In this document: positions 5,043 to 35,811 of the stretch, piece by piece
Numbering within the stretch: the stretch's first letter is position 1
Layout of the letters: each line of letters begins with the position of its first letter
Translations under genes and position numbers: made by a program
Notes under the pieces: model-generated
Told to the model about the DNA's origin: nothing
The model's database searches: none
What the model saw: only the letters and a program-made list of their open reading frames with translations
DNA from: Chloroflexota bacterium
GTDB taxonomy: Bacteria; Chloroflexota; Anaerolineae; Promineifilales; Promineifilaceae
Length of the DNA: 64,000 bases
Reading direction: 5' to 3'
Assembly (NCBI GenBank): GCA_024275635.1
Contig: JAJRYT010000114.1
Span: 28,292-92,291 of the forward strand

Positions 5043-5230
5043 GATAAAACCTCCTATGGGGTGATAAAATGCCCAAACCGGGCGGCCCAAAAGGGCTTGA
5101 AAATAACCGAATCAGAATGACGTTTTATCCCCGGAGGCCGGAAAAGGGTCTCAGGTGGATGAAACGCGGCTGAATCGGATGAAAAACAAGAGAATGGTCT
5201 GAAAATTAGGTGAAAAGTTGTCGTTTAGCT

Positions 5231-5419
5231 CCCCCTAAAGCTCATTTAATCGTTCCTGACACGCGTTGAGTCGTTCCTATGGCTCGTTGAGTCATCCCTA
5301 AAGCTCATTGAGCCGTTCCTGACACGCGTTGAGTCATTCCTAAACATTATTTGGTTATTCCTAAGGCTTGTTGGGCGGCTCCTAAGGCTCATTTGGTCAT
5401 CCCTATGGCTCGTTTTGTT
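5231..5419. repeat. 9 contiguous degenerate 21-bp tandem repeats
   Basis: Units such as gttcctgacacgcgttgagtc, gttcctatggctcgttgagtc and atccctaaagctcattgagcc. Conserved TCCT and GCTC-TT columns. No spacers between units. Confidence 0.85.
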
Positions 5420-5614
5420 ATTGTCGGGGATTATAGCGGGGAAACGGCCGTTTTGCACGCATTTTTTGTTGGGTTTTATGGGGGTTGGGCGGGGGAACGG
5501 TCTCTAAATAAATATTTAAGCAGGGTTCAATTATGCTGAAATCATCTTTACAATTAACCTGTTTTAACAGGTTTCCCTCTTTAGTGAGCGTCCATTAAAT
5601 AAGTTCCCTGTTTT

Positions 5615-5672
5615 GAGACTGGAGACTGGTTAACTGGAGACTGGCAGTCTCCAATCTCCAATCCCTAGTCTC
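5615..5672. repeat. heptamer hairpin, GGAGACT/AGTCTCC family
   Basis: gagactggagactgg...ggagactggcagtctccaatctccaatccctagtctc. Tandem 7-mers on both arms. Confidence 0.8.
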
Positions 5673-5826
5673 AGGAAGTAATTTTTAGATGCTCACTTAG
5701 CGGGGCATTTCAATGCCCCGTGATGGCGGCCATATTGTAAAGATTAATTGTTCAGTTTTGAACCATGCCCTTTTTTCGCTCTTTGCTGTTTTGTACCTTT
5801 GATTAGGGTTCCTGACACTTTTTCAC

Positions 5827-6999
5827 TCAAGCCGCATTCCCAGCGACTTTTACCACACTGGAACTGGCTAATCTTTCCCCTATAATTGTATTGGACAATT
5901 CATCGTGGAACAATTTCTTGGTCTTTTTGAATCTGAAATATTGTACGATCAAGAGAACGCCAACACTAAGGCCGTACAAGTAAAGCACAACGGTCCTCAT
6001 GATATTTCTCCACAAGGCGCGCAGATAAGAAATACGTTCCCCTTCTCTATCGGTTATCTGCAACTTCAATATTCGTTTGCCAATAGTGCCTTGCCATTGC
6101 GACGATTCCATAATTGGAAAGACCACGACATATATGATGATCGTAAGAATTGCTCCTACCTCATCAGCAATGGCAAATGCTATTCCCGTTAAAATGAATA
6201 AAAAGAGCTGGTCAATAAGCATAGCCCCGGCTCGTTTCAGCGTGACCGTTTTGTAGTACTTTTCTCGCCAATCAACAGCTATCGGCGACGATTCTCTTGC
6301 TTTACTCGTAGTCTGACTGTTGGATGTTCCTGAAGCAGCCTTAAAATCAGGGGTGTTTTCCACTTTCGTAGCAGACGATAGTTGCAATGCTTCATCTACT
6401 GGAGAAGCTGCCCTTGGTTGACTCGTAGTCTGACTCTGAGATGTTTCTAAAGTAGCCTTAAGCTCAGGAACGCTATCCATTTCCACAGCAAGCGATGGCT
6501 GCACTGCTTTACTTTGAGCCAACTCGTTAATCGAATCGTAAATATCGCTTGCCACAGCCATCGCCGCATCATCAGGGCTGTTCCAGAATTGTTTATTATT
6601 CAGTGGTTGTAGATTCTTTGGCAGCACATCCAGGCTGTTAAAAGGGGTTGCCGTCCACATGCAGTTACGAACGAGTATCGGAATCATGACAGTCTCATGA
6701 TTATTGTGTTTTTCAATCACCGTTTGATTTCGGCGGTAAATTCCATCGTCATCAATGAAATCAACACTAATAAGAGCGAGTACGATATCTGCATCAAATA
6801 ATCGTTGTTTATATTCTGCTCTATCCGCTCCACTGGGGACATTGAAATCACTATTCACCTGAATGGGTATCGCCGAATTTCTGATGATGGGCGAAAGATG
6901 CTTTTCGATCCCTTCGCAGATATCCTGGTCTTCCAGCGCTGCCAATAGATACACTTCAATGTTTCTATGCTGAGAATCGCGAGTTTCTGTAATCGTCAT
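5827..6999 (-). CDS. TIR-like domain protein fused to a C-terminal RDD-family membrane domain
   Basis: The N-terminal domain (IVLALISVDFIDDD...MIPILVRNCMW...LDVLPKNLQPL) is paralogous to the TIR of the next gene. Duplicated S/T/Q-rich linker. C-terminus has RDD-like motifs (RAGAMLIDQLF, GKRILKLQI, HDELSNT) and TM helices. AAGGAG SD. Confidence 0.7.
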   Translation of the reverse strand: MTITETRDSQHRNIEVYLLAALEDQDICEGIEKHLSPIIRNSAIPIQVNSDFNVPSGADRAEYKQRLFDADIVLALISVDFIDDDGIYRRNQTVIEKHNNHETVMIPILVRNCMWTATPFNSLDVLPKNLQPLNNKQFWNSPDDAAMAVASDIYDSINELAQSKAVQPSLAVEMDSVPELKATLETSQSQTTSQPRAASPVDEALQLSSATKVENTPDFKAASGTSNSQTTSKARESSPIAVDWREKYYKTVTLKRAGAMLIDQLFLFILTGIAFAIADEVGAILTIIIYVVVFPIMESSQWQGTIGKRILKLQITDREGERISYLRALWRNIMRTVVLYLYGLSVGVLLIVQYFRFKKTKKLFHDELSNTIIGERLASSSVVKVAGNAA

Positions 7000-7043
7000 A
7001 AAAGTAACTCCTTCATTTTTTTGATTGCCTTAGGGCACGTTCG

Positions 7044-7073
7044 TTTATAACTTTGGCGTTTGAAAAATTGTAA
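7044..7073 (-). promoter_or_regulatory. possible sigma70-type promoter for the TIR-RDD gene
   Basis: On the minus strand, TTACAA - 18 nt - TATAAA, about 45 nt upstream of the ATG at 6999. Confidence 0.3.
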
Positions 7074-7125
7074 CCAGGTAATTGGTAACTGGTAATTACC
7101 TGGTTACTCAATTACCAATTACCAG
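7071..7125. repeat. heptamer hairpin, GGTAATT/AATTACC family
   Basis: ccaggtaattggtaactggtaattacctgg palindrome followed by ttactcaattaccaattaccag. Confidence 0.8.
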
Positions 7126-7216
7126 CAAACTGCAAAGTTAATTTTGAACGAACCTTTAGAATAGCAGGCCCTCTTATTTTTGATTCGACCGGCTAGTACC
7201 TTAACTTTATGATTTT

Positions 7217-7268
7217 GTAGGGTGAATTTGCAATTCGCCCAGGCTGGCGATTTACAAAATCGCCCTAC
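7217..7268. repeat. imperfect ~23-bp-arm hairpin between the two TIR genes
   Basis: gtagggtgaatttgcaattcgcc ... ggcgatttacaaaatcgccctac. Enclosed by an outer inverted repeat ctagtacc(t)taac / gttac(g)gtactag. Confidence 0.65.
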
Positions 7269-7296
7269 ATTTTTAGAAGGTTACGGTACTAGATCG

Positions 7297-8055
7297 CTAG
7301 GACAAGACGTGGGGGTAATCACTTGTCAATAATTGGAAAAGGCGCGGCGTCATATTTCGCCGCTCAACGTGGGCAATAAGCGCCATGATTTTGGTCGTCT
7401 TAGCTTCACTACCCTCTAAATTCTCATAATCAATATCTAGATCAAAAGCAACTTGTTTCACCTCATTTACACTCAGCCTATCACCGAGTCGCTTGCGTAA
7501 TTCATTTTGGGGCATGACCGGAACCTCAAATAGTTTCTCTTTAATTGGCGCGATATGAGAAGTATTTGCCTTGTTGGGTACGGCCGTTGACTTTTTCAAG
7601 ATATGATCAACGAGATCCTCAACACCTTTGGCAATTTCGGTAAATGCATCGTCGCGATTGGGGTATTCTGTGACTGGCGTCGCATTGCGGGGAAGCGCCT
7701 GCAGATTGGTGTACGGTTGGCTGCTCCAATCACACTTACGGAGTATGATCGGCACCACGTAAGCCGTTCCCTCTTCATGGCGTTTCATAGCTGACTTGAG
7801 TTCGTTATCCCAGATAGAATCTGAGGCGATGAAGTCAACACTTATCAAGAGTAAGATGATATTTGCCTTGTTTAATTCAGACATAATGGTCTGATCCCGC
7901 TCCTGCCCACCCAGAAGCTCCCTGTCGTTCCACGTCTGGATTTTTGAGGAACGCTTTAATACCTTTAAGTGCTTATCCAATTCCTTTTTCAAATCTTCGT
8001 CTTCATGGACATAAGAAATAAAGACGGAAACGCCGGATTGGGAACCTTCTATCAT
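7297..8055 (-). CDS. TIR domain protein with C-terminal effector-associated (Death-like adaptor) domain
   Basis: VFISYVHEDEDLKKEL...ILLLISVDFIASDSIWDNEL...VVPIILRKCDW...LQALP is a TIR_2-type domain. The C-terminal ~70 aa (VKQVAFDLDIDYENLEGS...IMALIAHVERRNM...LFQLL) resembles EAD-type adaptor modules. Confidence 0.75.
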   Translation of the reverse strand: MIEGSQSGVSVFISYVHEDEDLKKELDKHLKVLKRSSKIQTWNDRELLGGQERDQTIMSELNKANIILLLISVDFIASDSIWDNELKSAMKRHEEGTAYVVPIILRKCDWSSQPYTNLQALPRNATPVTEYPNRDDAFTEIAKGVEDLVDHILKKSTAVPNKANTSHIAPIKEKLFEVPVMPQNELRKRLGDRLSVNEVKQVAFDLDIDYENLEGSEAKTTKIMALIAHVERRNMTPRLFQLLTSDYPHVLS

Positions 8056-8118
8056 TATGAATACCTCTGGGATTTAATTACTTTGCTTGGGATGGTTGTG
8101 CGCAACTTAGAGATTTTC

Positions 8119-8146
8119 ATTATATACTCTGGATACAAAACTGCAA
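8119..8146 (-). promoter_or_regulatory. possible sigma70-type promoter for the TIR-EAD gene
   Basis: On the minus strand, TTGCAG - 16 nt - TATAAT, about 60 nt upstream of the ATG at 8055. AGAGG SD 8 nt before the ATG. Confidence 0.35.
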
Positions 8147-8475
8147 GCCGGCGCTCGGTAACGAGCCGCCGCGGCCAGCTTAAACGCTGCCTGAGTATTG
8201 TTAACCTGCGCCGGGCGTCGGATACTGCCAGGTGTCGGATAGCTGCCAGGTTAACCGTCAATTAGGACGAAAAACCGGCAAAATGGGCAAAATATGATGA
8301 GATTTGGGATTTTATTGGGCTTATTGGCTGGATACCCCCCCGATGGGGAACCATTCCGACTCCAAAAACATTCACAATAAGCAAGGGGGCGTATAAGAGA
8401 TTAGAAAAGTATTAAGGGTTCGCTTTGTTTCCGTGTTGTTTATGTTTTTTGGGGGGAAAACGGCCGTCCCCCCCA

Positions 8476-9615
8476 TCATTTCCCATACAAAAAGCGATAA
8501 ACCACATACCCGGTATAAATCCGCTCAATATACAGCCGCGTTTCAGCGAAATTGACCGTTTCCAGGTATAAATCATGGTCATTCCCCGCCTCCTCGTACC
8601 AGATGGCGGCGTTGCCCGGCCCGGCGTTGTAAGCGGACAGCGCGGCGGCGGTGAAGCCGTCGAAGGCGCGTAACTGCTGATCCAGGTAGTAGCTGCCAAA
8701 AGTCAGACCCACGTAAGGCTTAAACAGGTCGTCATTTTCATAATCAGGCCAGGCCAGCCGCTGGGCGATGTAGGCGCCGGTGTCGGGGATGACCTGGGCC
8801 AATCCCTGCGCCGCTGCGCCGGAGCGGGCGAAGCTCTCAAACAGACTCTCCTGCCGCACCAGGGCGAATTGCAAGAGGGGGTCGTAGCCGTGTTGTTCAG
8901 CCAGGGGCAGGATGAGGTCGGCGTAGTAAGCGGGGTAAGCGAGACGGCCGATAAACATTGGCGCGTCAAACACGGTCTGGTTGGTCAGTTCAAGGACGGC
9001 CGTAGCTGCCAGAATAGAGGAGCGGTAAAGGCCCAGGTCGCGGAAGGCGAGGGCGAGCTGGTAGCTGAGCAAGGCGTCATCGGCGGTGTCGGCGCGGAGG
9101 GATTCCAGTTCTCGTTTCGCTTGTTCCCACAAGCCAGCCCGCCACAATTTTACGCCGATGATGAAGCGGGTATCTTCGACCAGCGCGTCGGATAGCGCGG
9201 AGACGTTGGTTTCCGGTTCCAGTTCTAACCAATCGCGCAGCCACGCTTCGGCTGCGGAACGGCCGTCATCCTCATCAGGCAGGTTCAAATCCGGCACAGG
9301 CGGGAAGGGGCCCGCTGCATTAGCCAGGTCGCGGGCGCGCAGCGGATAGTAGTTGGGAGCAGGGGCTAAAGCGAAAGCGAGAGCAAGCGGGTCAGTGGGG
9401 GTGATGGTTGTGGTTGCCGAAATTGTAGCCGTGGGTGTGATGGTCAGCGTGGCGGCGACGGTCGATGAGGGAACGCTGGGGCCGGTTTTGAGCAGCCAGA
9501 CGAGCGATGCCGCGCCGTATTGGGCTTCGGGGTAATTTTGGCTGGCTTGCTGCCACAAAGTGACGGCCGTTTCCCCATCTCCCCGCCTCTCCGCCAAAAA
9601 ACCGGCCCGGAACAA
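8476..9615 (-). CDS. lytic transglycosylase (SLT domain) segment; lacks its own signal peptide and continues the upstream TPR frame
   Basis: QESLFESFARSGAAAQGLAQVIPDTG...YNAGPGNA are SLT catalytic motifs. The ORF begins at a TTG one codon after an in-frame TAA. Confidence 0.8.
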   Translation of the reverse strand: MFRAGFLAERRGDGETAVTLWQQASQNYPEAQYGAASLVWLLKTGPSVPSSTVAATLTITPTATISATTTITPTDPLALAFALAPAPNYYPLRARDLANAAGPFPPVPDLNLPDEDDGRSAAEAWLRDWLELEPETNVSALSDALVEDTRFIIGVKLWRAGLWEQAKRELESLRADTADDALLSYQLALAFRDLGLYRSSILAATAVLELTNQTVFDAPMFIGRLAYPAYYADLILPLAEQHGYDPLLQFALVRQESLFESFARSGAAAQGLAQVIPDTGAYIAQRLAWPDYENDDLFKPYVGLTFGSYYLDQQLRAFDGFTAAALSAYNAGPGNAAIWYEEAGNDHDLYLETVNFAETRLYIERIYTGYVVYRFLYGK

Positions 9616-13047: not shown

Positions 13048-14133
13048 TCAACGACAACGTTCCACATTAGCCAGATGCTCCTCATAGGTGATGCTGAAAA
13101 CGTGGCTGCCGGGGGTAACGGCCGTACAGTCCACGACGAAAAAAATAAATTCAGTTTGTGTCGGTTCGGCGACGGCTTGCAGAGAAGCCAGCCCCGGATT
13201 GGCGATGGGGCCGGGCGGCAGACCAGCAGTGGCGTAGGTGTTGTAGGGGGAGTCCAGCGCCAAATCTTCCAAATAGAGCGGCGTTTTCCACCATTGGCTC
13301 GTATCCGGTTGGTAGCCGAGGGCGTATTGGATGGTGGGGTCGGCTTCCAGGCGCATCCCCTGATGGAGACGGTTGAAGAAGACGCTGGCGATGAACGGCC
13401 GTTCCCCATCCACTACCGCCTCCCGTTCCACAATCGAAGCTAAAACGACCGCCTCGCGCAGGGATAACCCGTTCACGCCAAACGCCTGCCGCAGCGCCGG
13501 GGTCACGCGGCGGCCAAAATTTTGCAGCAGCGCGTCTACCAGATAAGCAGCGTCGGCGTCGGGTGGGACGCGGTAGGTGTCGGGGAAAAGATAGCCTTCC
13601 AGCGTGGCATCCTGTGGCAGGGAAGCCAGAAAATCATAGGTGGAGAGGTCAAAAGGAGCTTGTCTTCGTGTAATCATTAGGAATTGATCGGCATCAATGG
13701 CTGCGGGGCGGGTTTCGGCCAGGGAGGCGGCCATCTCTTCCAACCGCCAGCCTTCGACGAAGCGCAGTTCGATTTCTCGTTTACGGCCGTCGGTCAGCGC
13801 GGCGGCCAGTTCGGGGATGCTCATTTGTGGTGAGAGGGTGAAGTCGCCCGCCTCAAGCTGGGCGTCCAGGCCGTGATAGCGGGCGTAGCGGCGGAACAGG
13901 TCGGCGTCGTTGAGCAGCCCGGCGGCAGACAGGTTGGCGGCGATGGAGTCGGCCGTTTCTCCGGGGGCGATGGTGAAATCGACGGGTAAGCTGCCATCCC
14001 CGGCTGGCTTTTGTAACTGTTCTTGCCGCGATGACAGCCAGGTTTGCAAGTAGATGCGTTCGATAGGATTGAGGGCGGGGTTGTTTGTGGTGGGAGCGGC
14101 GCGCAGGATGAGGAGGAGAACGACCGCGCCCAA
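13048..14133 (-). CDS. mltG: endolytic murein transglycosylase MltG (YceG family)
   Basis: LASIVEREA...IASVFFNRL...ADPTIQYA...YNTYATAGLPPGPIANPGLASLQAV are YceG/MltG motifs. TTG start in the track. The N-terminus may be longer. Confidence 0.85.
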   Translation of the reverse strand: MGAVVLLLILRAAPTTNNPALNPIERIYLQTWLSSRQEQLQKPAGDGSLPVDFTIAPGETADSIAANLSAAGLLNDADLFRRYARYHGLDAQLEAGDFTLSPQMSIPELAAALTDGRKREIELRFVEGWRLEEMAASLAETRPAAIDADQFLMITRRQAPFDLSTYDFLASLPQDATLEGYLFPDTYRVPPDADAAYLVDALLQNFGRRVTPALRQAFGVNGLSLREAVVLASIVEREAVVDGERPFIASVFFNRLHQGMRLEADPTIQYALGYQPDTSQWWKTPLYLEDLALDSPYNTYATAGLPPGPIANPGLASLQAVAEPTQTEFIFFVVDCTAVTPGSHVFSITYEEHLANVERCR

Positions 14134-14221
14134 TCCTGCCAGCGCCGTCAGCCCTCCGCCGGTCCGAATCCAACAGCCAAGTCGTTTTTTGTTGATGAAG
14201 CCCTCCGTTCTCGTAACCCGT

Positions 14222-14279
14222 TTTCCGTAATCCGTGCTTTGTACTTAGACGATGGTTTACGGATTATGGTCTACGGATC
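14222..14279. repeat. hairpin, TACGGAT/ATCCGTA family
   Basis: ccgtaatccgt ... acggattatgg...ctacggatc, between the ruvX stop and the mltG start. Confidence 0.55.
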
Positions 14280-14706
14280 ACCGATGCGCGTCCAAATAAT
14301 TTTGCAAAATAAACGCCGCCGCCACCGCATCCACCCGCGCTGTGGCCTTTTTGCCACGAATGTTGCGGGCGCGCAGACTGGCTTCCGCTTCTACCGTCGT
14401 CAGGCTCTCATCCCAAAATTCAATGGGGATGGTGAGGCGCTGCCGCAAATCGGCGGCGTAATTGCGCACCCAGGCCGTTTTTTGGCTGTCCGCGCCGCCC
14501 AGGGTGATGGGCAGGCCGACGACAAGCAGGGTGATTTTTTGCTCGGCGATGATGGCTTGGTAGCGGGCAAAATCTTCCACCCGCGATTTGCGTTTGAGGA
14601 CGGCATATGATTTGGCAATCAGCTGCAGCTCATCGCTGACGGCGACGCCGATTCGTTTTTCGCCTAAGTCCAGGGCCATGATGCGGCCTTTGAGTTCAAA
14701 CATCAT
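14278..14706 (-). CDS. ruvX: Holliday junction resolvase-like RuvX/YqgF
   Basis: GRIMALDLGEKRIGVAVSD... plus ~140 aa length is typical of YqgF/RuvX. Confidence 0.85.
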   Translation of the reverse strand: MMFELKGRIMALDLGEKRIGVAVSDELQLIAKSYAVLKRKSRVEDFARYQAIIAEQKITLLVVGLPITLGGADSQKTAWVRNYAADLRQRLTIPIEFWDESLTTVEAEASLRARNIRGKKATARVDAVAAAFILQNYLDAHR

Positions 14707-14709
14707 AAT

Positions 14710-14755
14710 TAAGGATTGATGATTGACGCTGCTTTAATCATCAATCTTCAATCTC
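14710..14755. repeat. heptamer hairpin, GATTGA/TCAATC family
   Basis: gattgatgatt ... aatcatcaatcttcaatc. Confidence 0.7.
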
Positions 14756-14934
14756 GAATTTTCCCAGATAACGGCCGTTTTCACTTGCCGCTTGCCCTAC
14801 GGTTGTCCGATTCCGGGTGAGAAAAAGAAGTGTAACGGCCGTTCTCCTACCTGACAAGAGTCCCGCCAAAAGATTAAACCAAAATGAACCGGATAAATTA
14901 GGCCAGTCCATCTGATCCATTACCGCAGGAGTAT

Positions 14935-14970
14935 GGAGATTGGGAGATTTAATCTCTTAATCTCCCAATC
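14935..14970. repeat. hairpin, GGAGATT/AATCTCC family
   Basis: gattgggagatt / aatctcccaatc, a perfect 12-bp stem. Confidence 0.8.
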
Positions 14971-14977
14971 GCTTCCT

Positions 14978-16522
14978 TCATTCACCGGGCCGGATGTTGG
15001 TTTGAATGCGGCTGGTTAAATAGGGCAGGCGGTGGAACCAGAGCGGCCGGATTTCAATTTCGGGCGGCGCTTGCAAGGGTAACTGCCGGTTAAGATAGGC
15101 GACGGCCGTTTCCGTTTCTTGTCCGGCGATGGCTTTCAAGTCGGCGGCTAACTCCATCTCAATCGCCATCATTCCTTCGCCAGTCATCAGGAAAGTCACA
15201 TTACCAGCCTCGTCGGCGCTGACGACCTGGCTTTCGCCAAACCGGATGCTGTCGGGAACCAGGCTGAAGCCGGGCGTTATCTGTCGGGCCAGGGCTTCGT
15301 ATACCAGACCAGAGGCGGCGGTGGTATCAACGGCCGTCCCTTGCAGCGCCGCTTCCATTTCCACGCCCAGCCGTTCGGTCTGCTCACCTACCGCGTGCGA
15401 AAATCGTTCGCTGAATATCTCCACCACGCGCAGCGACTCCCGCGCTAAAAATTCCCGTTCCGTGATCTGGGTTTCCATTTCTGACAGGGCCACCGCTTGC
15501 AAAAATTGCAGCGCTTGTGAGCGCAGACGGGCGACATCAGCTTCAGAAACGGCCGTGACCGCTTGCACCGCCCCGCCTACCATTGGGGCCGGGTTACGGA
15601 CTTTGACTCGTTCGGCCAGCGGTTCGGACAAAATCGTGATGGTTTCTCTGGTCACATTCCCCTGCGGGCCGGGTTCCAGGGCGATAACGTCTGTTTCGGC
15701 CGTGCCGCCGGCGACGCCCACAACGATCACTTCTTCTACAGTCTGGAAGGCGATGTCGCTGCCGTCGTTGGCGCGGATGATGGTTCCGGCGGGGATGGCG
15801 ACCGTTTCGCTGGTGACGTTGGTGAAGACGATGCGCCCGCGGCCCGGGGCGGTGGGCACATCAATCACGCCTGTCGTTTCAATCTCGGTTTTCCAGGTTT
15901 GGGTGATGGTAAGCAGGCGGGCGGGGATGGTGTTTTGCGCGTAGTCAATATCGGAGAAGGTGGGGACGGCCGTAATTTGCTGAACGGCCGTCAGCGGTTG
16001 TACAATTGGTTCCAGCGTAATCGTGGCGCGGGGAACCAGATACAAAAAGGAGATAACGGCCAGCGCGCCAGCCACAAAAAAGAGCAAAATCGCCGCATAC
16101 CGGATGAGCCATTGGCGCGGCGTGATAACCGGTGCGGGCAGCAGTTCCCCGTCATCGTCGGCCTCAGTCTGGTGCGGTTTGCCGTCGTCCAGCGGTTCGC
16201 CGTAGGTGGGCAGGCCCAGCCGTGCCTGCCGCCGCCTGCCGCGCCACCAGCCGCGGCGGCTCGTTTCCGCTTCGGCGACGCTGGCGAAGGCAGGCAGCCC
16301 CACCGCCCGCGCCTGTCGTGATAATTGGCGATTGGTTGTGACTAGGCCGACTTCAACCCGGTTCCTGTCCGCGTAACGGCGCAGGCGGATGAGAGAGAGG
16401 GGGGGGAGAACGGCCGTTTCTTCCTCCGGCAGGACAAACAACACCCGCTTTTCATCCGACCAATCCAGCCGATCACACACGGAGATGATGTCGTCGTCGG
16501 GGGTGAGGGAGATTACTTTCAT
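14978..16522 (-). CDS. hypothetical membrane protein (central region weakly baseplate J/gp47-like)
   Basis: 514-aa ORF with one TM helix. GRIVFTNVTSETVAIPAGTIIRA...ALEPGPQGNV recalls baseplate-J-like proteins. Weak recognition. Confidence 0.6.
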   Translation of the reverse strand: MKVISLTPDDDIISVCDRLDWSDEKRVLFVLPEEETAVLPPLSLIRLRRYADRNRVEVGLVTTNRQLSRQARAVGLPAFASVAEAETSRRGWWRGRRRQARLGLPTYGEPLDDGKPHQTEADDDGELLPAPVITPRQWLIRYAAILLFFVAGALAVISFLYLVPRATITLEPIVQPLTAVQQITAVPTFSDIDYAQNTIPARLLTITQTWKTEIETTGVIDVPTAPGRGRIVFTNVTSETVAIPAGTIIRANDGSDIAFQTVEEVIVVGVAGGTAETDVIALEPGPQGNVTRETITILSEPLAERVKVRNPAPMVGGAVQAVTAVSEADVARLRSQALQFLQAVALSEMETQITEREFLARESLRVVEIFSERFSHAVGEQTERLGVEMEAALQGTAVDTTAASGLVYEALARQITPGFSLVPDSIRFGESQVVSADEAGNVTFLMTGEGMMAIEMELAADLKAIAGQETETAVAYLNRQLPLQAPPEIEIRPLWFHRLPYLTSRIQTNIRPGE

Positions 16523-17163: not shown

Positions 17164-17606
17164 TTTAATGGGATGCGTATGGTGGACTCAAAGTCGTCGC
17201 AATTGATTTGTAAACTGTCTAGGGTGGGGTTGACACAAGTGTGTTGGTAAACCACTGCACCCGCACGATTTCCGCCGGAAGGGTCGCTGTCATATCGGAA
17301 GTAGAAAATATCGCCGTTATGGGTTGCTGCCCAGCCGTCGGCAACGTGGGAATCTATCCCCTGCTGTTGGATTTGCAGGAAGAATCCCTGGCCCGTCTGC
17401 TGCGCTTTCGAGGCGCAGGCAAACCCTGGCCCTGGATCATCTCCGACGCGGGTGATGCCGCAATCAACGGCCGTTTTCTCTGCATGATCGGCTAAAAATT
17501 TATGGAACACGGCCGTGTCATCCGCGCGTCCCGTCATAAACAGCAGCAAGATGACCAGCATACTTGCCAGTAATATTGTTCCCTGTTTCCAGCCCCATTT
17601 TTTCAT
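17160..17606 (-). CDS. hypothetical secreted protein
   Basis: Start chosen at MKKWGWKQGTILLASMLVILLLF (signal-like). The ORF-track N-terminal extension is Arg-rich and overlaps the upstream gene. Confidence 0.5.
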   Translation of the reverse strand: MKKWGWKQGTILLASMLVILLLFMTGRADDTAVFHKFLADHAEKTAVDCGITRVGDDPGPGFACASKAQQTGQGFFLQIQQQGIDSHVADGWAATHNGDIFYFRYDSDPSGGNRAGAVVYQHTCVNPTLDSLQINCDDFESTIRIPLK

Positions 17607-17614
17607 ATCTGCTT

Positions 17615-18118
17615 TCAGATCGGGTTGGAGCCGCCAGCCTGAAAAATCTCTTCCAGATAGCGGCGGGCTTTGTTGACTTCGTAATTGTAGAAAACCATGC
17701 TGATTCCGTAAAAGAGTATCAGGAAACTGAAAAAGAGGGTAAACGAACCTGCGCCGCCGTTGCCTGTTTCCGGCGAAACGAGGAAACCAAAGGATATGAA
17801 TGCCCAAAAGGGGATGAACAGGGCCATGAAGCCAATAATGAAATAGCTCAAGCGCGTCGTGACCTCAATGCGGCTTGTGTTCAGGTCGTTGTGAATTTGA
17901 CCGGTGATGATAGGCAGGAAGTTGTTGCGGTAATGAATGATGCGATTGATGTTGAATTTGCCGTTTTCTACTGTCCCCGCAAAAAATTTATGATCCCGTG
18001 AAAACCCCCAACGGAACAACTGGCGCGGTTCCACCTCTGCCGCCAGTCGTTGTTCCACCTCATGCGCTTGCAAATATGCCTTGATGGTAAACCGGGTGTA
18101 GGGAATGAGTAGAATCAT
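17615..18118 (-). CDS. hypothetical membrane protein
   Basis: 167-aa ORF with two predicted TM helices in the C-terminal half. No domain recognised. Confidence 0.5.
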   Translation of the reverse strand: MILLIPYTRFTIKAYLQAHEVEQRLAAEVEPRQLFRWGFSRDHKFFAGTVENGKFNINRIIHYRNNFLPIITGQIHNDLNTSRIEVTTRLSYFIIGFMALFIPFWAFISFGFLVSPETGNGGAGSFTLFFSFLILFYGISMVFYNYEVNKARRYLEEIFQAGGSNPI

Positions 18119-18128
18119 GTTTTTGGAT

Positions 18129-18182
18129 AGATTGGGGATTGGAGACTAATTCGCCCAGTCTCCAATCCCCAGTCTCCAGTCT

Positions 18183-18185
<3 letters not shown>
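18129..18185. repeat. heptamer hairpin, GGAGACT family, immediately 3' of alaS
   Basis: ggggattggagact / agtctccaatcccc, a perfect 14-bp stem, then agtctccagtctc. Confidence 0.85.
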
Positions 18186-20876
<2,691 letters not shown>

Positions 20877-32423: not shown

Positions 32424-32905
32424 TCAAAATTGTGACGATTGGAGTCTATGGTTTTACTGAGGATGGGTTTTTCCAAGCCTTACAGAAAGCAAAGGTGGAT
32501 ACATTTTGCGATATCCGGCAGCGGCGCGGCGTGCGCGGCGCTAAATATGCGTTTGTCAACAGCAAACGGCTGCAAGAAAGATTGACCGAGTTGGGAATTC
32601 GTTACCTGCATCGCAAAGATTTAGCCCCGACAACGGCCGTTCGCCAACGTCAAAAAGAGGCCGACAAAGCTAACAAAACAGCTAAACGGCAGCGGACAGC
32701 CTTAGGATCGGCTTTCATCGCCGCTTACCAGGCAGAAATTCTGGCCGATTTCGCGCCGCAATCGCTGCTGGACGACTTGGATCCTGATACGCAAACCGTC
32801 GCCCTTTTCTGCGTAGAACGGGAACCGGCCGCCTGCCACCGTTCGTTAGTCGCCAATAAATTGCAGCGAGAGTTGGGTTTAGCAATGGAGCATATCGTGC
32901 CATGA
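32420..32905 (+). CDS. DUF488 domain protein (divergent second copy)
   Basis: [37 protein letters not shown]...[21 protein letters not shown] overlap with both neighbours. Confidence 0.75.
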
Positions 32906-35811
32906 AAGTCGTCATTGTTGCTAAAACGAGGATGGGGAGCGGGGCTTGTGTTGGGGGAATCACGTTTGACGGCCGTTCCCTGCGCCTCATCACGCCCGAC
33001 ATGGATAGCCATGATCATTTCAACATGGAATATAACATCGGTGATGTGTGGGATGTAGATTTTACACCCGCCGCAAACCGTCCCGCCCCGCACACAGAAG
33101 ATGTAATCGTCCACAGTAAACGCAAACTTCCCCCCATTGACAATGTGGCGGAATTCATCGAATATCAAATGCTGCCTCAGGAAGGCGGGGCGACTGTGTT
33201 ATTCGACGGGTTGGCCCAGACCACTAAAGCAGGCGTTCAGTACATTGCCGAGCGCGCAGGGACACCCGCCTACAGCACAATGTTCTGGCGGCCCGACCAA
33301 CCTTTAACCCGCGACGATGACGCCAAACGCATTCGCTATCGCTACCCAACACCCGACGGCGGACGTACGCTGACTTTTGTCGGTTTCCAGGAGCCGTTGG
33401 CTGAGATTCCGGCGGGAACGCTGCTGCGCGTTTCTCTGGCGCATTGGTGGCGGCCCAAAGATATGCCCGACGGCGAACTGCGCTGCTACGTTCAGTTGTC
33501 CGGCTGGTATTTGCCGGAGAGTTTAGAAAATGAAGATTGGCAACCAGATATTGACGCCGACCAAATTCCAATCTCCAATCTCCAATTGCTAGTCTCTAAA
33601 CCGCGCACGCCGGTTCCCCTTGATCTCTCTACCGCCCAGTCCCTCCTCAAAAAAGTGTTTGGCTATGATGAATTCCGGTCGCTGCAGGCGGACATCATCC
33701 AAAATGCGCTGGACAAGCGGGACTCGCTGGTGATTATGCCCACCGGCAGCGGCAAATCATTGTGCTACCAGCTGCCGGCGCTCATGTTCCCCGGTCTCAC
33801 CGTTGTTGTGTCGCCGCTGATTTCGTTGATGGAGGATCAGGTGGCGCAGTTGCGGGAAGCGGGGGTAACGGCCGTTTACCTCAATAGCACGCTCTCTTAC
33901 GACCAATATCTGTACACTACCAACCAAATCCGATCCGGGGCCGTCAACCTGCTCTACGCCGCCCCCGAAACCCTGATGCGCCCCGAAACCTTGCTGCTGC
34001 TGGAACAAAGCCGGGTGGACTGCCTGACCATTGATGAAGCCCACTGCATCTCCGCCTGGGGACACGATTTCCGGCCTGAGTACCGCCAGTTAGTCGAACT
34101 GCGCCGCCGTCTGCCCGACGCCGTCTGCCTGGCCGCCACCGCCACCGCCACCGACCGTGTGCGCCAGGACATCAAAACCTCGTTGGGCATTCCCGCCGCC
34201 GGAGAATTTATTGCCAGCTTCAACCGCGAGAACCTGTTCCTGGCCGTCGAACCCAAAACGGCCGGTCTGCGGCAAACGTTGGCCTTCCTGGACGCCCATC
34301 GAGACCAAGCGGGTATCATCTACTGCGCCACCCGCAAACAGGTGGACGCGCTGACGAATGACCTGGCGGCGAACGGCTGGCCGGTTTTGCCCTATCATGC
34401 CGGACTGGATGCCGGGACGCGCCAACGTAACCAGCGCCGCTTCACGCATGAGGAAGCGGTGGTGATGGTCGCCACAATCGCCTTTGGTATGGGCATTGAC
34501 AAATCAAACGTGCGCTTTATTTTGCATTACGACCTGCCCAAAAATCTGGAAAGTTATTACCAGCAAATTGGCCGCGCCGGGCGCGATGGCCTGCCCGCCG
34601 ACTGCCTGCTCCTGTTCAGCTACAGCGATGTGCAGACGATCAATTATTTCATCATGCAAGCCGCGCCTGACCAGCAAATCGGGGCGCGGATGCGGCTGGA
34701 GGCGATGCTGCGTTTTGTGGAGACGAATGTGTGCCGGATACGGCCGTTACTGGCCTATTTTGGCGAAACCTACGCGACCGAAAACTGCCAAACCTGCGAC
34801 AACTGCACCGCTGAAGCGGAAGATTTAACCGATTTGACCATCCCGGCGCAAAAATTCCTCTCCTGCATCAAACGCACCGGCGAACTGTTCGGCGTCAGCC
34901 ACATCATTGACGTGCTGCGCGGCTCCCAATCGCAAAAAGTGTTACAGCGGCGGCATGACCGGCTTTCCACCTACAACATTGGCCGCGAATTTTCCAAGAA
35001 GGAGTGGCAGCATTTGTCGCGCCAATTCATCCAGCAGGGGTTGATTGCGCAGGACATGGAACATGGCAGCCTGAAACTGACCCCCCAAGCGTATGCCGTC
35101 TTCAAAGGGGAAAAGGTGATGGGGGTTCTGCCAAAGCGGGAAACGGCCGTCGCCCACACCCAAGCCCCCCTCGCCCACGACCCGGTTCTGTTTGGCCTGC
35201 TGCGCCAGAAACGCACCGAACTGGCTGCCGCTGCCGGTGTACCGCCCTATGTCATCTTCTCTGATCGTTCCTTAGTGGAGATGGCCGCCTACTTCCCGCA
35301 ATCGCGGCCGAATTTCGGCGGCATGTACGGCGTCGGTCAGGCTAAATTGGAAAAGTACACGGACGAATTTTTACCCATCATCCAGGCCTACTGCCGGGAA
35401 CATGACATCGCCGAAAAACCAAAGGGGGGCGGGGCCGTATCGCCCGCCTGCCGCATCGTGACCGGCCTCAAAGGGCGCACGGAAGCAGTCATCGAGGCGT
35501 ACAATGCCGGGCATGCCATCCCCGACATTGCCGCCGATTTGGGGGTAAAGACGGGGACGGTGTTAGGCCATTTATGGAAAGGGGTACAGGCGGAACGGCC
35601 GTTACGCGCCGACGGCCTGCTTCAACTTTCCCAACTCGCCGCGGAAGAACAACAGCGTGTCCTGGACGCTTTCGCCGAACTGGGAACTGATTTCTTGCGT
35701 CCGGTGTTTGAAGCGATGGGGGAAACAGTCAGCTACGATGAGTTGAAAATTTTGCGGTTGGTTACGGCCGTGATGAATAATAACCCACATACAGAAGATA
35801 GAAGTAATTGA
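32902..35811 (+). CDS. recQ: RecQ-family DNA helicase with a ~205-aa uncharacterised N-terminal domain and C-terminal HRDC plus helix-turn-helix-like tail
   Basis: FGYDEFRSLQ...MPTGSGKSLCYQLPAL...DEAHCISAWGHDFRPEY...ATATA...VATIAFGMGIDK...QQIGRAGRDG, a Zn-binding Cys cluster, RQC and HRDC (ELAAAAGVPPYVIFSDRSL). Confidence 0.9.
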   Translation: MKVVIVAKTRMGSGACVGGITFDGRSLRLITPDMDSHDHFNMEYNIGDVWDVDFTPAANRPAPHTEDVIVHSKRKLPPIDNVAEFIEYQMLPQEGGATVLFDGLAQTTKAGVQYIAERAGTPAYSTMFWRPDQPLTRDDDAKRIRYRYPTPDGGRTLTFVGFQEPLAEIPAGTLLRVSLAHWWRPKDMPDGELRCYVQLSGWYLPESLENEDWQPDIDADQIPISNLQLLVSKPRTPVPLDLSTAQSLLKKVFGYDEFRSLQADIIQNALDKRDSLVIMPTGSGKSLCYQLPALMFPGLTVVVSPLISLMEDQVAQLREAGVTAVYLNSTLSYDQYLYTTNQIRSGAVNLLYAAPETLMRPETLLLLEQSRVDCLTIDEAHCISAWGHDFRPEYRQLVELRRRLPDAVCLAATATATDRVRQDIKTSLGIPAAGEFIASFNRENLFLAVEPKTAGLRQTLAFLDAHRDQAGIIYCATRKQVDALTNDLAANGWPVLPYHAGLDAGTRQRNQRRFTHEEAVVMVATIAFGMGIDKSNVRFILHYDLPKNLESYYQQIGRAGRDGLPADCLLLFSYSDVQTINYFIMQAAPDQQIGARMRLEAMLRFVETNVCRIRPLLAYFGETYATENCQTCDNCTAEAEDLTDLTIPAQKFLSCIKRTGELFGVSHIIDVLRGSQSQKVLQRRHDRLSTYNIGREFSKKEWQHLSRQFIQQGLIAQDMEHGSLKLTPQAYAVFKGEKVMGVLPKRETAVAHTQAPLAHDPVLFGLLRQKRTELAAAAGVPPYVIFSDRSLVEMAAYFPQSRPNFGGMYGVGQAKLEKYTDEFLPIIQAYCREHDIAEKPKGGGAVSPACRIVTGLKGRTEAVIEAYNAGHAIPDIAADLGVKTGTVLGHLWKGVQAERPLRADGLLQLSQLAAEEQQRVLDAFAELGTDFLRPVFEAMGETVSYDELKILRLVTAVMNNNPHTEDRSN
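33567..33597. repeat. GGAGACT-family heptamer tract embedded in-frame inside recQ (domain linker)
   Basis: ttccaatctccaatctccaattgctagtctct encodes IPISNLQLLVS between the N-terminal extra domain and the helicase core. Confidence 0.75.

Follow-up and report, generated by a model that had tools for sequence, protein, structure and literature searches.

A conserved two-gene cassette of a catalytic-type TIR and a pseudo-TIR–RDD membrane protein, recently imported into a Chloroflexota genome

Two neighboring genes in a 64,000-nucleotide stretch of a Chloroflexota bacterium contig (hereafter the window) make up a conserved, previously undescribed bacterial two-gene cassette, of which the window copy is a recent import. 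The upstream gene, A (7297..8055, minus strand; 252 aa), encodes a TIR domain, a linker and an EAD7 domain, and the downstream gene, B (5827..6999, minus strand; 390 aa), encodes a pseudo-TIR, a linker and an RDD membrane domain. A preliminary description of this DNA, made from the letters alone, had placed both ORFs here on the minus strand and had called TIR_2, EAD and RDD domains in them; these assignments were borne out by profile searches and by AF2 and Foldseek analysis of each protein, TIR_2 and EAD7 of gene A lying above the Pfam gathering cutoffs. We give an even chance to the reading that the locus is an imported, self-contained TIR cassette whose active and inactive TIRs form a membrane-bound pair acting as a conflict or stress module.

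The TIR domain of gene A spans residues 9–158 (7582..8031, minus strand) and is of the catalytic type. It matched Pfam TIR_2 over residues 11–113 (E = 5.8e-12, 46.6 bits, cutoff 28) and the PADLOC ThsB (ThsB1) profile at 1.6e-49. Short TIR homologues of 155–160 aa, found across phyla, are 59–84% identical to it, and gene A itself is a singleton at 90% clustering. Residue E85 (codon 7801–7803), which sits in a W-x-x-E-L motif and aligns with the Cat1 glutamate, showed no exception among 35 aligned sequences, and its conservation was at least 95% in a 42-sequence set. The AF2 model of the domain was confident and had its best TM-score with AbTir bound to 3AD (7uxu, TM 0.77); the Foldseek matches of the A model were TIR domains, with 4c6t at the top. 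Judged from its sequence, the product of A is a small cytosolic TIR in which the NAD-cleaving catalytic glutamate is retained and for which NAD+ activity is predicted. Conservation is high throughout the domain, with 83 of the ∼157 columns at least 93% conserved. A linker (7510..7581, minus strand) begins where family homology ends in the C-terminal alignment, and its disorder is predicted from AF2 confidence (pLDDT<50 at residues 160–180).

Gene B opens with a TIR-like domain that is non-catalytic (residues 10–165; 6505..6972, minus strand). Although this domain falls under the Pfam cutoff (16.1 bits vs 28), it matched the PADLOC ThsB profile at 2.3e-18, was modeled by AF2 with a pLDDT of ∼90, and had only TIR domains among its top 27 PDB matches (probability 0.99–1.00), 4c6t again being the Foldseek top match. 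The two TIR domains of the cassette are paralogous, as had been proposed (BLASTP, 29% identity over 160 aa, E = 7e-21). In window B the catalytic-Glu position is occupied by N91 (6727–6729), and throughout the B family this column is T or N, beside Y88 and R90, which are both invariant; across the family alignment the TIR domain has no invariant Glu at all. The family also has FISY changed to FLAA and carries a nearly invariant QPLNNKQFWNS-DDA loop. Because the catalytic Glu has been lost across the family, we regard the B TIR as a pseudo-enzyme and would not treat it as a second NAD-consuming effector.

The pseudo-TIR is connected to the membrane by an S/T/Q/P-rich tether (6271..6504, minus strand) that AF2 predicts to be disordered. 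It contains a 117-nt tandem duplication (6276–6392 and 6393–6509, 73% identical), the duplicated linker noticed in the preliminary description, and linker length varies across the family; B proteins without FHA range from 368 to 516 aa. The RDD integral-membrane domain follows at residues 244–378 (5866..6270, minus strand) and matched Pfam PF06271 over residues 254–370 (E = 9.9e-16, 58.7 bits, cutoff 24.1), with B-family members scoring 69–82 bits. In the AF2 model of B (mean pLDDT 74.8, pTM 0.70), RDD helices were predicted at 245–277, 279–299, 325–344 and 348–360 (pLDDT 83–94). The RDD signature residues R256, D263 and D366, which lie within or beside the predicted helices 245–277 and 364–369, were invariant in 43 sequences, as were E298, K308, R327, R331, H365 and E375. 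Since its polar residues are invariant, the RDD is likely to be more than a mere anchor. In 12 other loci B also carries FHA, a phospho-threonine reader, giving an FHA–TIR–RDD architecture. RDD domains have a conserved cytoplasm-facing intramembrane site and are frequent fusion partners (PMC12419801, Aravind lab). The biochemical roles reported for RDD proteins so far are two, that of a Na+(Li+,K+)/H+ antiporter (PMC5996927) and that of a regulator of the SppA protease (PMC7568657). A cytoplasmic signaling domain tethered to RDD is likewise found in FHA-RDD and VanZ-RDD proteins and in the kinase-type PD-T4-6, whose C-terminus is RDD-like (positions 354–470 of the PADLOC PD-T4-6 profile matched the B RDD at 8.3e-10), but none of these carries a TIR.

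A and B are functionally linked, as their association across genomes shows. Scanning 185,579 species, each represented by one genome, with a pattern search that reaches close relatives only yielded 43 loci. In 41 of the 43 genomes, which belong to Chloroflexota, Acidobacteriota and Bacteroidota, the TIR-RDD gene had an A-type TIR directly upstream on the same strand. The cassette was also found on ∼25 metagenome contigs. B homologues numbered 246; most were 360–520 aa, with coverage of 93–100%. Every metagenomic A homologue of at least 59% identity with enough downstream sequence had B, and across the loci collected we found no A-family gene without B and a single B without A (locus L018). Because B occurs without A at L018, B may have an A-independent role. 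The A and B distance matrices were correlated (Mantel r = 0.41–0.62; 0 of 2000 permutations as high), and no third gene was conserved across the 43 loci. A and B are thus inherited and transferred together, on one strand and with no third partner. Aequorivita-like flavobacteria share synteny at the cassette, and the identity of 59–84% between A proteins of different phyla points to its horizontal spread. Since some hosts are in culture (Aequorivita lipolytica, A. todarodis and Hwangdonia seohaensis), the cassette idea is directly testable. A TIR-RDD fusion had been thought to be undescribed, and we likewise found no description of such a protein in the literature searched.

What sets the window copy of gene A apart is its C-terminus, a Death-like all-helical adaptor of the EAD7 family (residues 183–250; 7306..7509, minus strand) recognized by Pfam, phmmer and AF2. 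The tail matched PF19960 over residues 186–244 (E = 2.2e-10, 40.6 bits, cutoff 32) and scored 3.6e-27 against a 260-domain EAD7 profile built in this analysis; AF2 predicted helices for residues 183–251, with low confidence. Because the score is well above the Pfam cutoff, we take the tail to be a maintained domain and not read-through junk. An exhaustive phmmer search returned 267 relatives of the tail. All 72 that were scanned had EAD7, together with EAD1, AAA_16, nSTAND1, NACHT, Roc-COR, CHAT or TIR, and TIR_2 was present on 7 of them, indicating that TIR-EAD7 proteins occur elsewhere; the 150 nearest EAD7 proteins all lacked the A-family TIR. Elsewhere in the family, A proteins end at 155–160 aa, and sequence comparison indicates that in this cassette family the window copy alone gained a Death-like adaptor tail. 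The module described earlier, a TIR-EAD gene followed by a TIR-RDD gene, therefore holds as regards the linkage of A to B in 41 genomes but not as regards the EAD tail, which is confined to the window, the family A being a bare TIR.

The EAD principle and TIR-EAD effectors have been described (PMC7159879, PMC8195603), with EAD7 classed as an effector-recruiting EAD (PMC7159879), and EADs tag effectors of NTPase-centered systems that include vWA-MoxR-VMAP, iSTAND, GAP1 GTPase and STAND-FGS (PMC7159879, PMC8195603). Gene A shares the architecture of the EAD-tagged effectors (Kaur, Burroughs, Iyer and Aravind, 2020, 2021), in that a non-catalytic EAD at the protein terminus is fused to an effector domain. 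It differs from them in that its TIR comes from a cassette family whose other members have no EAD, that it brings its own membrane partner, B, and that no cognate EAD7 core protein lies next to it. Indeed, a six-frame profile search of the 64-kb window found no EAD7 partner (next best E = 0.62), and the window has no STAND NTPase, its other large ORFs being housekeeping, in agreement with the preliminary description.

The imported cassette lies within a low-GC island (5100..8480, no strand assigned; GC 0.38–0.48 vs 0.58–0.69 in the flanks). The GC content of the window cassette is 0.433 compared with 0.598 for its flanks, a deficit of 0.165; in contrast, cassette GC equaled flank GC within ∼0.055 in other genomes (n = 38), and such a deficit was seen in the window only. 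The host palindrome ACGGCCGT is rarer inside the island (1 copy vs 5.3 expected, P = 0.03), and copies lie at both island edges (5444 and 8460); the sole internal copy (7580–7587) covers codons 157–159 of gene A, at the start of the linker. One island edge bears an array of about nine 21-nt tandem repeats (5221..5409, no strand assigned). The structured non-coding tail of the island (5460..5826, minus strand) contains nested long inverted repeats (I1 and I5), had an RNA fold of −115 kcal/mol vs −75.5±5.0 (z = −7.9), and matched no Rfam family. A decayed cassette relic of 91–93% nucleotide identity (L089) was found in an unrelated context on another metagenome contig, with A and B decayed together in a low-GC patch that adjoins a candidate BrnA-like antitoxin ORF, a call made from sequence alone.

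The spacer between A and B (7000..7296, minus strand) is also expanded in the window, at 297 nt compared with 40–75 nt in most other loci. It contains two long hairpins (∼7186–7296, with a core at 7216–7269, and 7070–7123), a perfect 14-nt inverted repeat and a nested one, and its RNA fold of −98.8 kcal/mol vs −60.3±4.6 for shuffles (z = −8.4) agrees with the two hairpins reported previously. The hairpin sequences are unique within the window, and the coding strand of the spacer has no T-run terminator. SD-like GGAG and AGAGG motifs were read ahead of both ATGs, as had been suggested, but the promoters proposed alongside them were at chance levels (7 sites vs 6.5±2.8).

We consider the cassette a probable conflict or stress module of new design, for which a defence role is plausible. 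In plants, the inactive TIR of RRS1 pairs with the active TIR of RPS4, and in AbTir and SARM1 TIR-TIR interfaces build composite active sites; from this likeness we infer that the pseudo-TIR of B may pair with the active TIR of A. The plant genes are likewise adjacent, one TIR having the catalytic Glu and the other lacking it. Similarity to the RPS4/RRS1 TIR heterodimer entry (4c6t) is at the level of the fold only (10–16% identity to its chains), and the cassette differs in having no NLR domains and in tethering the inactive member of the putative heterodimer to the membrane via RDD. Pairing would place the NAD-consuming or signal-making activity of A at the membrane under the control of B, with the RDD serving as a membrane-side input or output, for example in ion or ligand passage or in sensing. 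Activation would then lower NAD+ and/or perturb the membrane, leading to growth arrest of the abortive-infection type. The core pair could be a plug-in unit, fitted in different lineages with different upstream couplers, such as the FHA on B. The EAD7 of window A would dock homotypically onto an EAD7-bearing STAND, GTPase or VMAP sensor encoded elsewhere in the genome. Window A departs from the family at 7 of the 83 near-invariant columns (I11V, A16V, W53R, N76I, F80S, K84N and A116T), the most of any of 120 members, compared with 1 in 84 columns for window B, and the substitutions around its active site and BB loop probably reflect re-wiring to EAD7. Operons of a TIR and a TM effector are validated anti-phage designs (bioRxiv 10.64898/2025.12.03.692087).

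The genomic neighborhoods bear on how far a defence role can be taken. The 134 flanking proteins from ∼40 loci were overwhelmingly housekeeping, with no recurrent defence system, and five annotated ±10 kb neighborhoods were also housekeeping apart from an additional TIR and a single Gp49/HTH pair; in this limited sample, neither set showed enrichment of defence genes beside the cassette. A survey of TIR-RDD neighborhoods, as the preliminary description had recommended, thus revealed linkage to A but not to defence islands. Cassette copies were likewise absent from 72,556 plasmids, 50,697 phage genomes and IMG/VR contigs. Support for the conflict or defence reading therefore comes from the logic of the domains, the patchy distribution and the horizontal transfer, and guilt by association contributes none. 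The amelioration of GC in most hosts and the flavobacterial synteny look like stable residence and not rapid defence turnover, and the conservation of A is unusually high for an immune sensor, which counts against a conflict role.

An alternative that we consider doubtful is that the cassette follows classical Thoeris logic with no stable A-B complex: on infection A would make a diffusible ADP-ribose-derived signal, which B would bind through its pseudo-TIR pocket or a cytoplasm-facing RDD site before oligomerizing and breaching the membrane. Gene A scores highly on the ThsB profile, and Thoeris types II (ThsB with TM-Macro), V (ThsB with DUF2270/ThsF) and VII (ThsB with SLATT/ThsH), as well as several putative types, likewise place a small catalytic TIR gene next to a membrane-protein gene; the predicted outcome, growth arrest via NAD+-derived chemistry and the membrane, is also alike. 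A ligand site could be provided by the conserved cytoplasm-facing pocket of the RDD (PMC12419801) or, judging from the alignment, by the QPLNNKQFWNS-DDA loop with R90. However, the cytosolic module of the partner is here a dead TIR paralogue and not a SLOG, Macro or SLATT sensor, and its membrane part is RDD. None of the recognized Thoeris effector domains (SIR2-SLOG, Macro-TM, caspase-like, DUF2270, DUF6650, SLATT and others) was found in B or in the window, no gene with such a domain was conserved across the 43 loci, and neither the window nor the 43 loci contained a ThsA-type gene. We know of no TIR fold that has been demonstrated to act as a receptor for TIR products. Furthermore, the family, known here from sequence analysis, is not enriched beside defence genes, the criterion by which Thoeris types were defined; the conservation of A is higher than is typical of infection sensors; and RDD is not named in the main text or four supplements of the 29-type 2025 Thoeris catalogue (bioRxiv 10.64898/2025.12.03.692087).

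It is unlikely, in our estimation, that A and B are instead a non-immune physiological membrane-signaling pair, in which the RDD would be a transporter or sensor serving ion, pH or envelope homeostasis, regulated by an NAD+ derivative that the TIR makes or by the NAD+ level itself, with FHA and EAD7 as ordinary regulatory inputs. This explanation accommodates the housekeeping and metabolic flanks of the ∼40 loci (several neighbors are cation-efflux or MscS genes), the ameliorated GC in 38 hosts, the synteny in one flavobacterial lineage, the very strong purifying selection on A, the lack of copies among the mobile elements searched, and the antiporter and SppA-regulating RDD precedents. It does not sit easily with a distribution as patchy as 43 loci in the one-genome-per-species scan, with the cross-phylum identity of A that signals horizontal spread, with recent import in the window and decay in L089, or with the acquisition of an EAD7 from a family described in conflict systems. 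The catalytic bacterial TIRs characterized to date, as far as we are aware, all act in conflict.

Still less probable is an addiction pair of the toxin-antitoxin type, in which A would be an NAD+-depleting toxin and the B pseudo-TIR its dedicated inhibitor, as RRS1 restrains RPS4, with RDD merely anchoring B or sensing the conditions for release. The tight same-strand adjacency of the genes with B downstream, their transfer across phyla as a unit, the finding of A only with B among the loci collected while B turned up once without A, and the low-GC setting of the L089 relic beside the candidate antitoxin ORF would all fit. However, the invariant polar residues of the RDD argue for more than an anchor, both genes decayed jointly in L089, and the asymmetry between A and B hangs on the single locus L018. 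It is highly improbable that the window cassette is a non-functional passenger whose A drifts following a chance 3′ fusion, since, despite the record number of deviations in A, the spacer filled with palindromic elements and the decay of a related copy, neither ORF is broken or truncated and each has an SD motif, A keeps E85 and most of the invariant residues, B is family-typical, and the EAD7 tail is well above the Pfam cutoff.

If the preferred reading of an active/inactive membrane TIR pair is correct, the cassette would be an instance of such a pair in bacteria, would give the enigmatic RDD membrane domain its first functional context, and would be a natural case of one effector module re-wired to different sensors (FHA or EAD7). 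Were it a housekeeping NAD-signaling device, it would be among the few non-immune roles of an enzymatic bacterial TIR. Catalogues of TIR systems draw chiefly on the defence islands of Pseudomonadota and Bacillota, and such screens would miss this cassette because it occurs mostly in Bacteroidota, Chloroflexota and Acidobacteriota and outside defence islands. More tentatively, the TIR/pseudo-TIR-RDD proteins may be an unrecognized, widespread family in which the tethered inactive TIR is the obligate partner, receptor or gate of the active one and couplers are modular, the window locus being a cross of a Thoeris-like cassette with a network of the STAND/ternary apoptosis-like kind. The TIR immunity of plants and animals has its evolutionary roots in bacterial TIR systems, and on this broader reading the cassette would be a prokaryotic counterpart of the sensor/helper TIR pairs of plants.

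Both open reading frames of the preliminary description were recovered exactly, on the minus strand: gene A (7297-8055), encoding 252 aa, and gene B (5827-6999), encoding 390 aa. Profile searches upheld the assignment of TIR, EAD and RDD domains, with A scoring above the Pfam cutoffs for TIR_2 (E = 5.8e-12; 46.6 bits, cutoff 28) and EAD7 (E = 2.2e-10; 40.6 bits, cutoff 32) and B for RDD (E = 9.9e-16; 58.7 bits, cutoff 24.1). The N-terminal TIR of B fell below the Pfam threshold (16.1 bits) and is secure on other evidence: it matched the PADLOC ThsB profile (2.3e-18), aligned with A by BLASTP (E = 7e-21, 29% identity across 160 residues), and gave an AlphaFold model (residues 10-165 at pLDDT ∼90) whose top PDB neighbours were all TIR domains (27 of 27, probability 0.99-1.00). 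The linker of B, described as duplicated, proved to be a 117-nt tandem duplication lying in a predicted disordered region; sequence matches of B to calicivirus capsids in the PDB (E ∼0.1-0.9) lie inside this low-complexity linker and were set aside as noise. The 297-nt spacer between the genes, where two hairpins had been noted, folds at −98.8 kcal/mol versus −60.3±4.6 kcal/mol for shuffles (z = −8.4), and the hairpins, which are unique within the window, were rejected as copies of a MITE or REP element. SD-like motifs precede both start codons, as proposed, whereas the accompanying claim of a plausible promoter for each gene was dropped as evidence because a sigma-70 promoter scan gave counts at chance level. 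The other genes of the window are housekeeping (AlaRS, RecQ, Tex, acyl-CoA ligase, AFOR and TPP oxidoreductase). The RecQ helicase (32902-35811) has an uncommon architecture, with an N-terminal DuOB (dual-OB) and a C-terminal HTH_40 domain.

Searches with B detected 246 homologues, most of those listed being 360-520 aa long with 93-100% query coverage. A had 578 homologues, and the 119 listed (the window's own protein excluded) were 145-209 aa long, mostly 155-160 aa, with 68-84% identity covering only ∼60% of A. The nearest homologues of the window's cassette (an A-type TIR gene directly upstream of a TIR-RDD gene) carry the labels Anaerolineales and Chloroflexota. When one genome of each species was scanned, 43 loci were recovered, in Chloroflexota, in Acidobacteriota and in many Bacteroidota (among them Chitinophagaceae, Aequorivita, Hwangdonia, Draconibacterium, Prolixibacteraceae and Saprospiraceae). 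Cultured carriers of the cassette are Aequorivita lipolytica Y10-2, A. todarodis KCTC 62141 and Hwangdonia seohaensis HD-3. Linkage between A and B homologues, which the preliminary description anticipated, was very strong: in 41 of the 43 loci an A-type TIR (56-79% identical) lay on the same strand directly upstream of the TIR-RDD gene, in most loci at a spacing of 40-75 nt. The two exceptions are a locus cut off by a contig end (L014) and a Saprospiraceae MAG (L018, 10001-11104) in which a TIR-RDD gene occurs without any A-type TIR in 15.9 kb. When neighbouring ORFs of the 43 loci were clustered, A and B alone were common to the loci; the next cluster, found in 9 loci, reflected lineage synteny. 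The same arrangement was seen on independent metagenome contigs, where each A homologue of at least 59% identity, provided that 200 nt or more lay downstream of it, was followed by B, and only distant TIRs (44-49% identity to A) had no downstream B. Distance matrices of A and B were correlated (Mantel r = 0.41 for the B TIR and 0.62 for the B RDD; 0 of 2000 permutations as high), which is as expected of genes inherited together and adds nothing beyond that. We conclude that the pair, made up of a TIR of catalytic type and a TIR-RDD membrane protein of non-catalytic type, is obligate and co-transferred.

The two TIR domains of this pair differ in their conserved residues. The A family retains the W-x-x-E-L motif with E85 invariant, and this residue aligns with the Glu of the CRISPR-associated TIR Cat1, the sole PDB sequence match; the best superposition of the A model was on AbTir with the NAD analogue 3AD (TM 0.77, rmsd 3.1 Å). 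The B family has T or N at the column equivalent to E85, between invariant Y88 and R90, carries FLAA in place of the N-terminal FISY motif, and has no invariant Glu anywhere in its TIR domain, so that this domain is a conserved pseudo-enzyme, a point absent from the preliminary description. B was ruled out as a second NADase, its family being without the catalytic Glu. A loop at residues 131-145 of B (QPLNNKQFWNS-DDA) is nearly invariant. Within the RDD domain the R-D-D signature (R256, D263 and D366) is invariant, as are E298, K308, R327, R331, H365 and E375, and the domain is more than a passive anchor.

Other proteins of the A family stop at ...GIEKLVDHVNAK..., and the window's A alone runs on, through a linker of ∼25-30 residues, into EAD7. 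No counterpart of this tail was found among the genome or metagenome loci, and the window's A and B are each a singleton at 90% clustering. A word-index homology search with the tail alone returned 0 matches; an exhaustive phmmer search returned 267 relatives. EAD7 was present in all 72 of the relatives scanned, often in multiple copies, together with EAD1 (14), AAA_16 (12), TIR_2 (7), nSTAND1 (6), NACHT (5), Roc-COR (3), CHAT (3) and bDLD1 (3), and an A-family TIR occurred on none of the 150 EAD7 relatives listed. The tail is a bona fide EAD7; the low confidence of its AF2 model (pLDDT 44-68) made a fold comparison with Death domains uninformative. The absence of a matching EAD-bearing NTPase from the window, previously noted, was borne out by a profile of 260 EAD7 domains run in six frames, which matched only the A tail (3.6e-27; next best 0.62). 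The window's A also departs from its family at 7 of 83 near-invariant columns, the highest count in a set of 120 members (median 1, 95th percentile 4). Four of these changes surround the retained E85 (W53R, N76I, F80S and K84N), and the remainder are A116T and the conservative I11V and A16V. The window's B is typical of its family (1 of 84 columns deviates).

The window's cassette lies in a low-GC island (∼5100-8480), its GC content being 0.433 versus 0.598 in the flanks, whereas in 38 other hosts cassette GC is within ∼0.055 of the flanks. There are 113 copies of the palindrome ACGGCCGT in the 64 kb, spread across the whole window (for example at 2514, 10699 and 62610), compared with 10 copies of the runner-up 8-mer palindrome, and the 10-mer AACGGCCGTT occurs 34 times versus 0.1 expected; as a highly iterated palindrome of its host genome, ACGGCCGT is comparable to HIP1. 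It is often set inside G-rich/C-rich extended arms and encodes 'ETAV' in many ORFs. The island holds 1 copy versus 5.3 expected (P = 0.03). This sole copy (7580-7587, A codons 157-159) lies exactly where A-family homology stops and the window-specific linker and EAD7 start, and could reflect recombination at the palindrome or, as a post hoc observation, coincidence. Further copies mark the island edges (∼5444-5451 and 8460-8467). The downstream edge also carries about nine degenerate 21-nt tandem repeats (5221-5409; consensus like TCGTTCCTAACACGCGTTGAG, 63-nt super-period), and an additional 77% match to the repeat (5808-5829) overlaps the stop codon of B. The non-coding stretch after B (5460-5826) has an exceptionally stable fold (−115 kcal/mol, z = −7.9) and contains nested long inverted repeats; it may be made of stacked palindromic insertions; an Rfam scan of the island gave a chance-level match only and no family for this stretch. 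Upstream of A, ∼160-195 nt from its start codon, two copies of an 18-nt direct repeat, GTCGGATAGCTGCCAGGT (8217-8251, 94% identical), could be an operator-like site. No tRNA integration site was found near the island, and the repeats that flank it (D4, direct, and I3, inverted) were not taken as att sites, being by our estimate about as many as chance would give.

A relic of the same cassette lineage was found on a metagenome contig (L089, UOEU01000074.1, 2631-3151). Over ∼520 bp it is 91-93% identical in nucleotides to the window (75% over the linker), internal deletions fuse its A and B fragments, and a palindromic insert interrupts it; it lies inside its own low-GC patch, with flanks unrelated to the window's. 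An adjoining ORF (2336-2674) is read, from sequence alone, as a putative BrnA-like antitoxin. Together, the unique EAD7 tail, the deviations of A, the low GC, the palindrome depletion, the spacer and 3′ palindromes and the L089 relic indicate that the cassette was recently imported into the window's genome and has undergone turnover elsewhere.

One explanation for these features, to which we give about an even chance, is a paired-TIR conflict or stress module. The pseudo-TIR of B would pair with A; plant RRS1/RPS4 pairs provide a precedent for TIR pairing, and AbTir and SARM1 form composite TIR-TIR active sites. Such pairing would position and control the NAD+ chemistry of A at the membrane, with the RDD domain serving as membrane input or output. 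RDD domains are reported to have a conserved cytoplasm-facing intramembrane site (Aravind lab, PMC12419801), and cation/proton antiport is the function of one RDD protein (PMC5996927). By the EAD principle (PMC7159879, PMC8195603), the EAD7 of A is predicted to dock onto a sensor of the STAND, VMAP or GTPase kind that bears EAD7 and is encoded elsewhere in the genome. The readings considered here partly overlap, and our estimates for them are not exclusive probabilities.

The nearest known designs are Thoeris with membrane effectors, EAD-tagged TIR effectors, plant paired TIRs and other fusions of cytosolic domains to RDD. Classical Thoeris logic with a diffusible signal is doubtful: unlike Thoeris, the cassette has neither a recognised effector or sensor domain nor, in the neighbourhoods sampled, defence-island enrichment, and it falls outside that class on both counts. 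The expected linkage to defence islands was not borne out in this sample, since neighbouring genes are metabolic or housekeeping and cassette copies are absent from plasmids, phages and IMG/VR. In five fully annotated neighbourhoods and 134 immediately flanking proteins (∼40 loci), neighbours included radical-SAM/SPASM and TPR proteins, cation efflux proteins, Ddl, sulfatases and peptidases; 72,556 plasmids and 50,697 phage genomes contained no full-length homologue, IMG/VR contigs contained no A homologue, and all that these searches turned up were unrelated TIRs of ∼30% identity. The only defence-like neighbours occurred in one of the five annotated neighbourhoods (L048, Prolixibacteraceae; 14097-15203 and 17600-18273), where a second, unrelated TIR of 368 aa lies ∼3 kb downstream of the cassette and a Gp49 (HigB-like)/HTH pair is present. 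PADLOC 'pVip' matches among the neighbours were discounted as a defence signal, being most likely the generic radical-SAM/SPASM proteins that a Pfam scan showed in that set. We consider a physiological, non-immune signalling role unlikely; in its favour are the housekeeping contexts, the amelioration of base composition and the strength of conservation. A toxin-antitoxin-like relation of A and B, suggested by A never being found alone and B alone once, is decidedly improbable, and that the window carries a decaying passenger, with E85 retained and B typical of its family, is very improbable indeed.

The cassette takes other forms in other lineages. In 12 of the 43 loci B carries an N-terminal FHA domain (FHA-TIR-RDD, 441-630 aa), and A is a bare TIR in every FHA-bearing locus. 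One FHA is present in Bacteroidota (L029-L032, L034-L038 and L042), and two in L002 (Acidobacteria), L003 (labelled Heliobacteriaceae) and L046. This suggests a phospho-threonine-dependent input in those lineages, and the FHA variants would couple instead to Ser/Thr-kinase signalling.

The literature searched contains no account of a TIR-RDD protein or the A/B pair, and in the systematic survey of TIR systems from 2025 (bioRxiv 10.64898/2025.12.03.692087) RDD is mentioned neither in the text nor in four supplements. In a screen for association with CRISPR, both an RDD protein and EAD7 figure among the linked genes (PMC10910872), which lends weak support to RDD in conflict contexts. Compared with EAD systems, A has the EAD-effector fusion and the 64-kb window has no cognate EAD7 partner, so that the likeness is half complete. 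With FHA on B in some loci and A still a bare TIR there, adaptor domains differ among lineages, and separate lineages have joined different coupling domains onto one core pair. The cassette thus belongs with two-gene TIR systems, and the copy in the window is a unique hybrid that bears EAD7.
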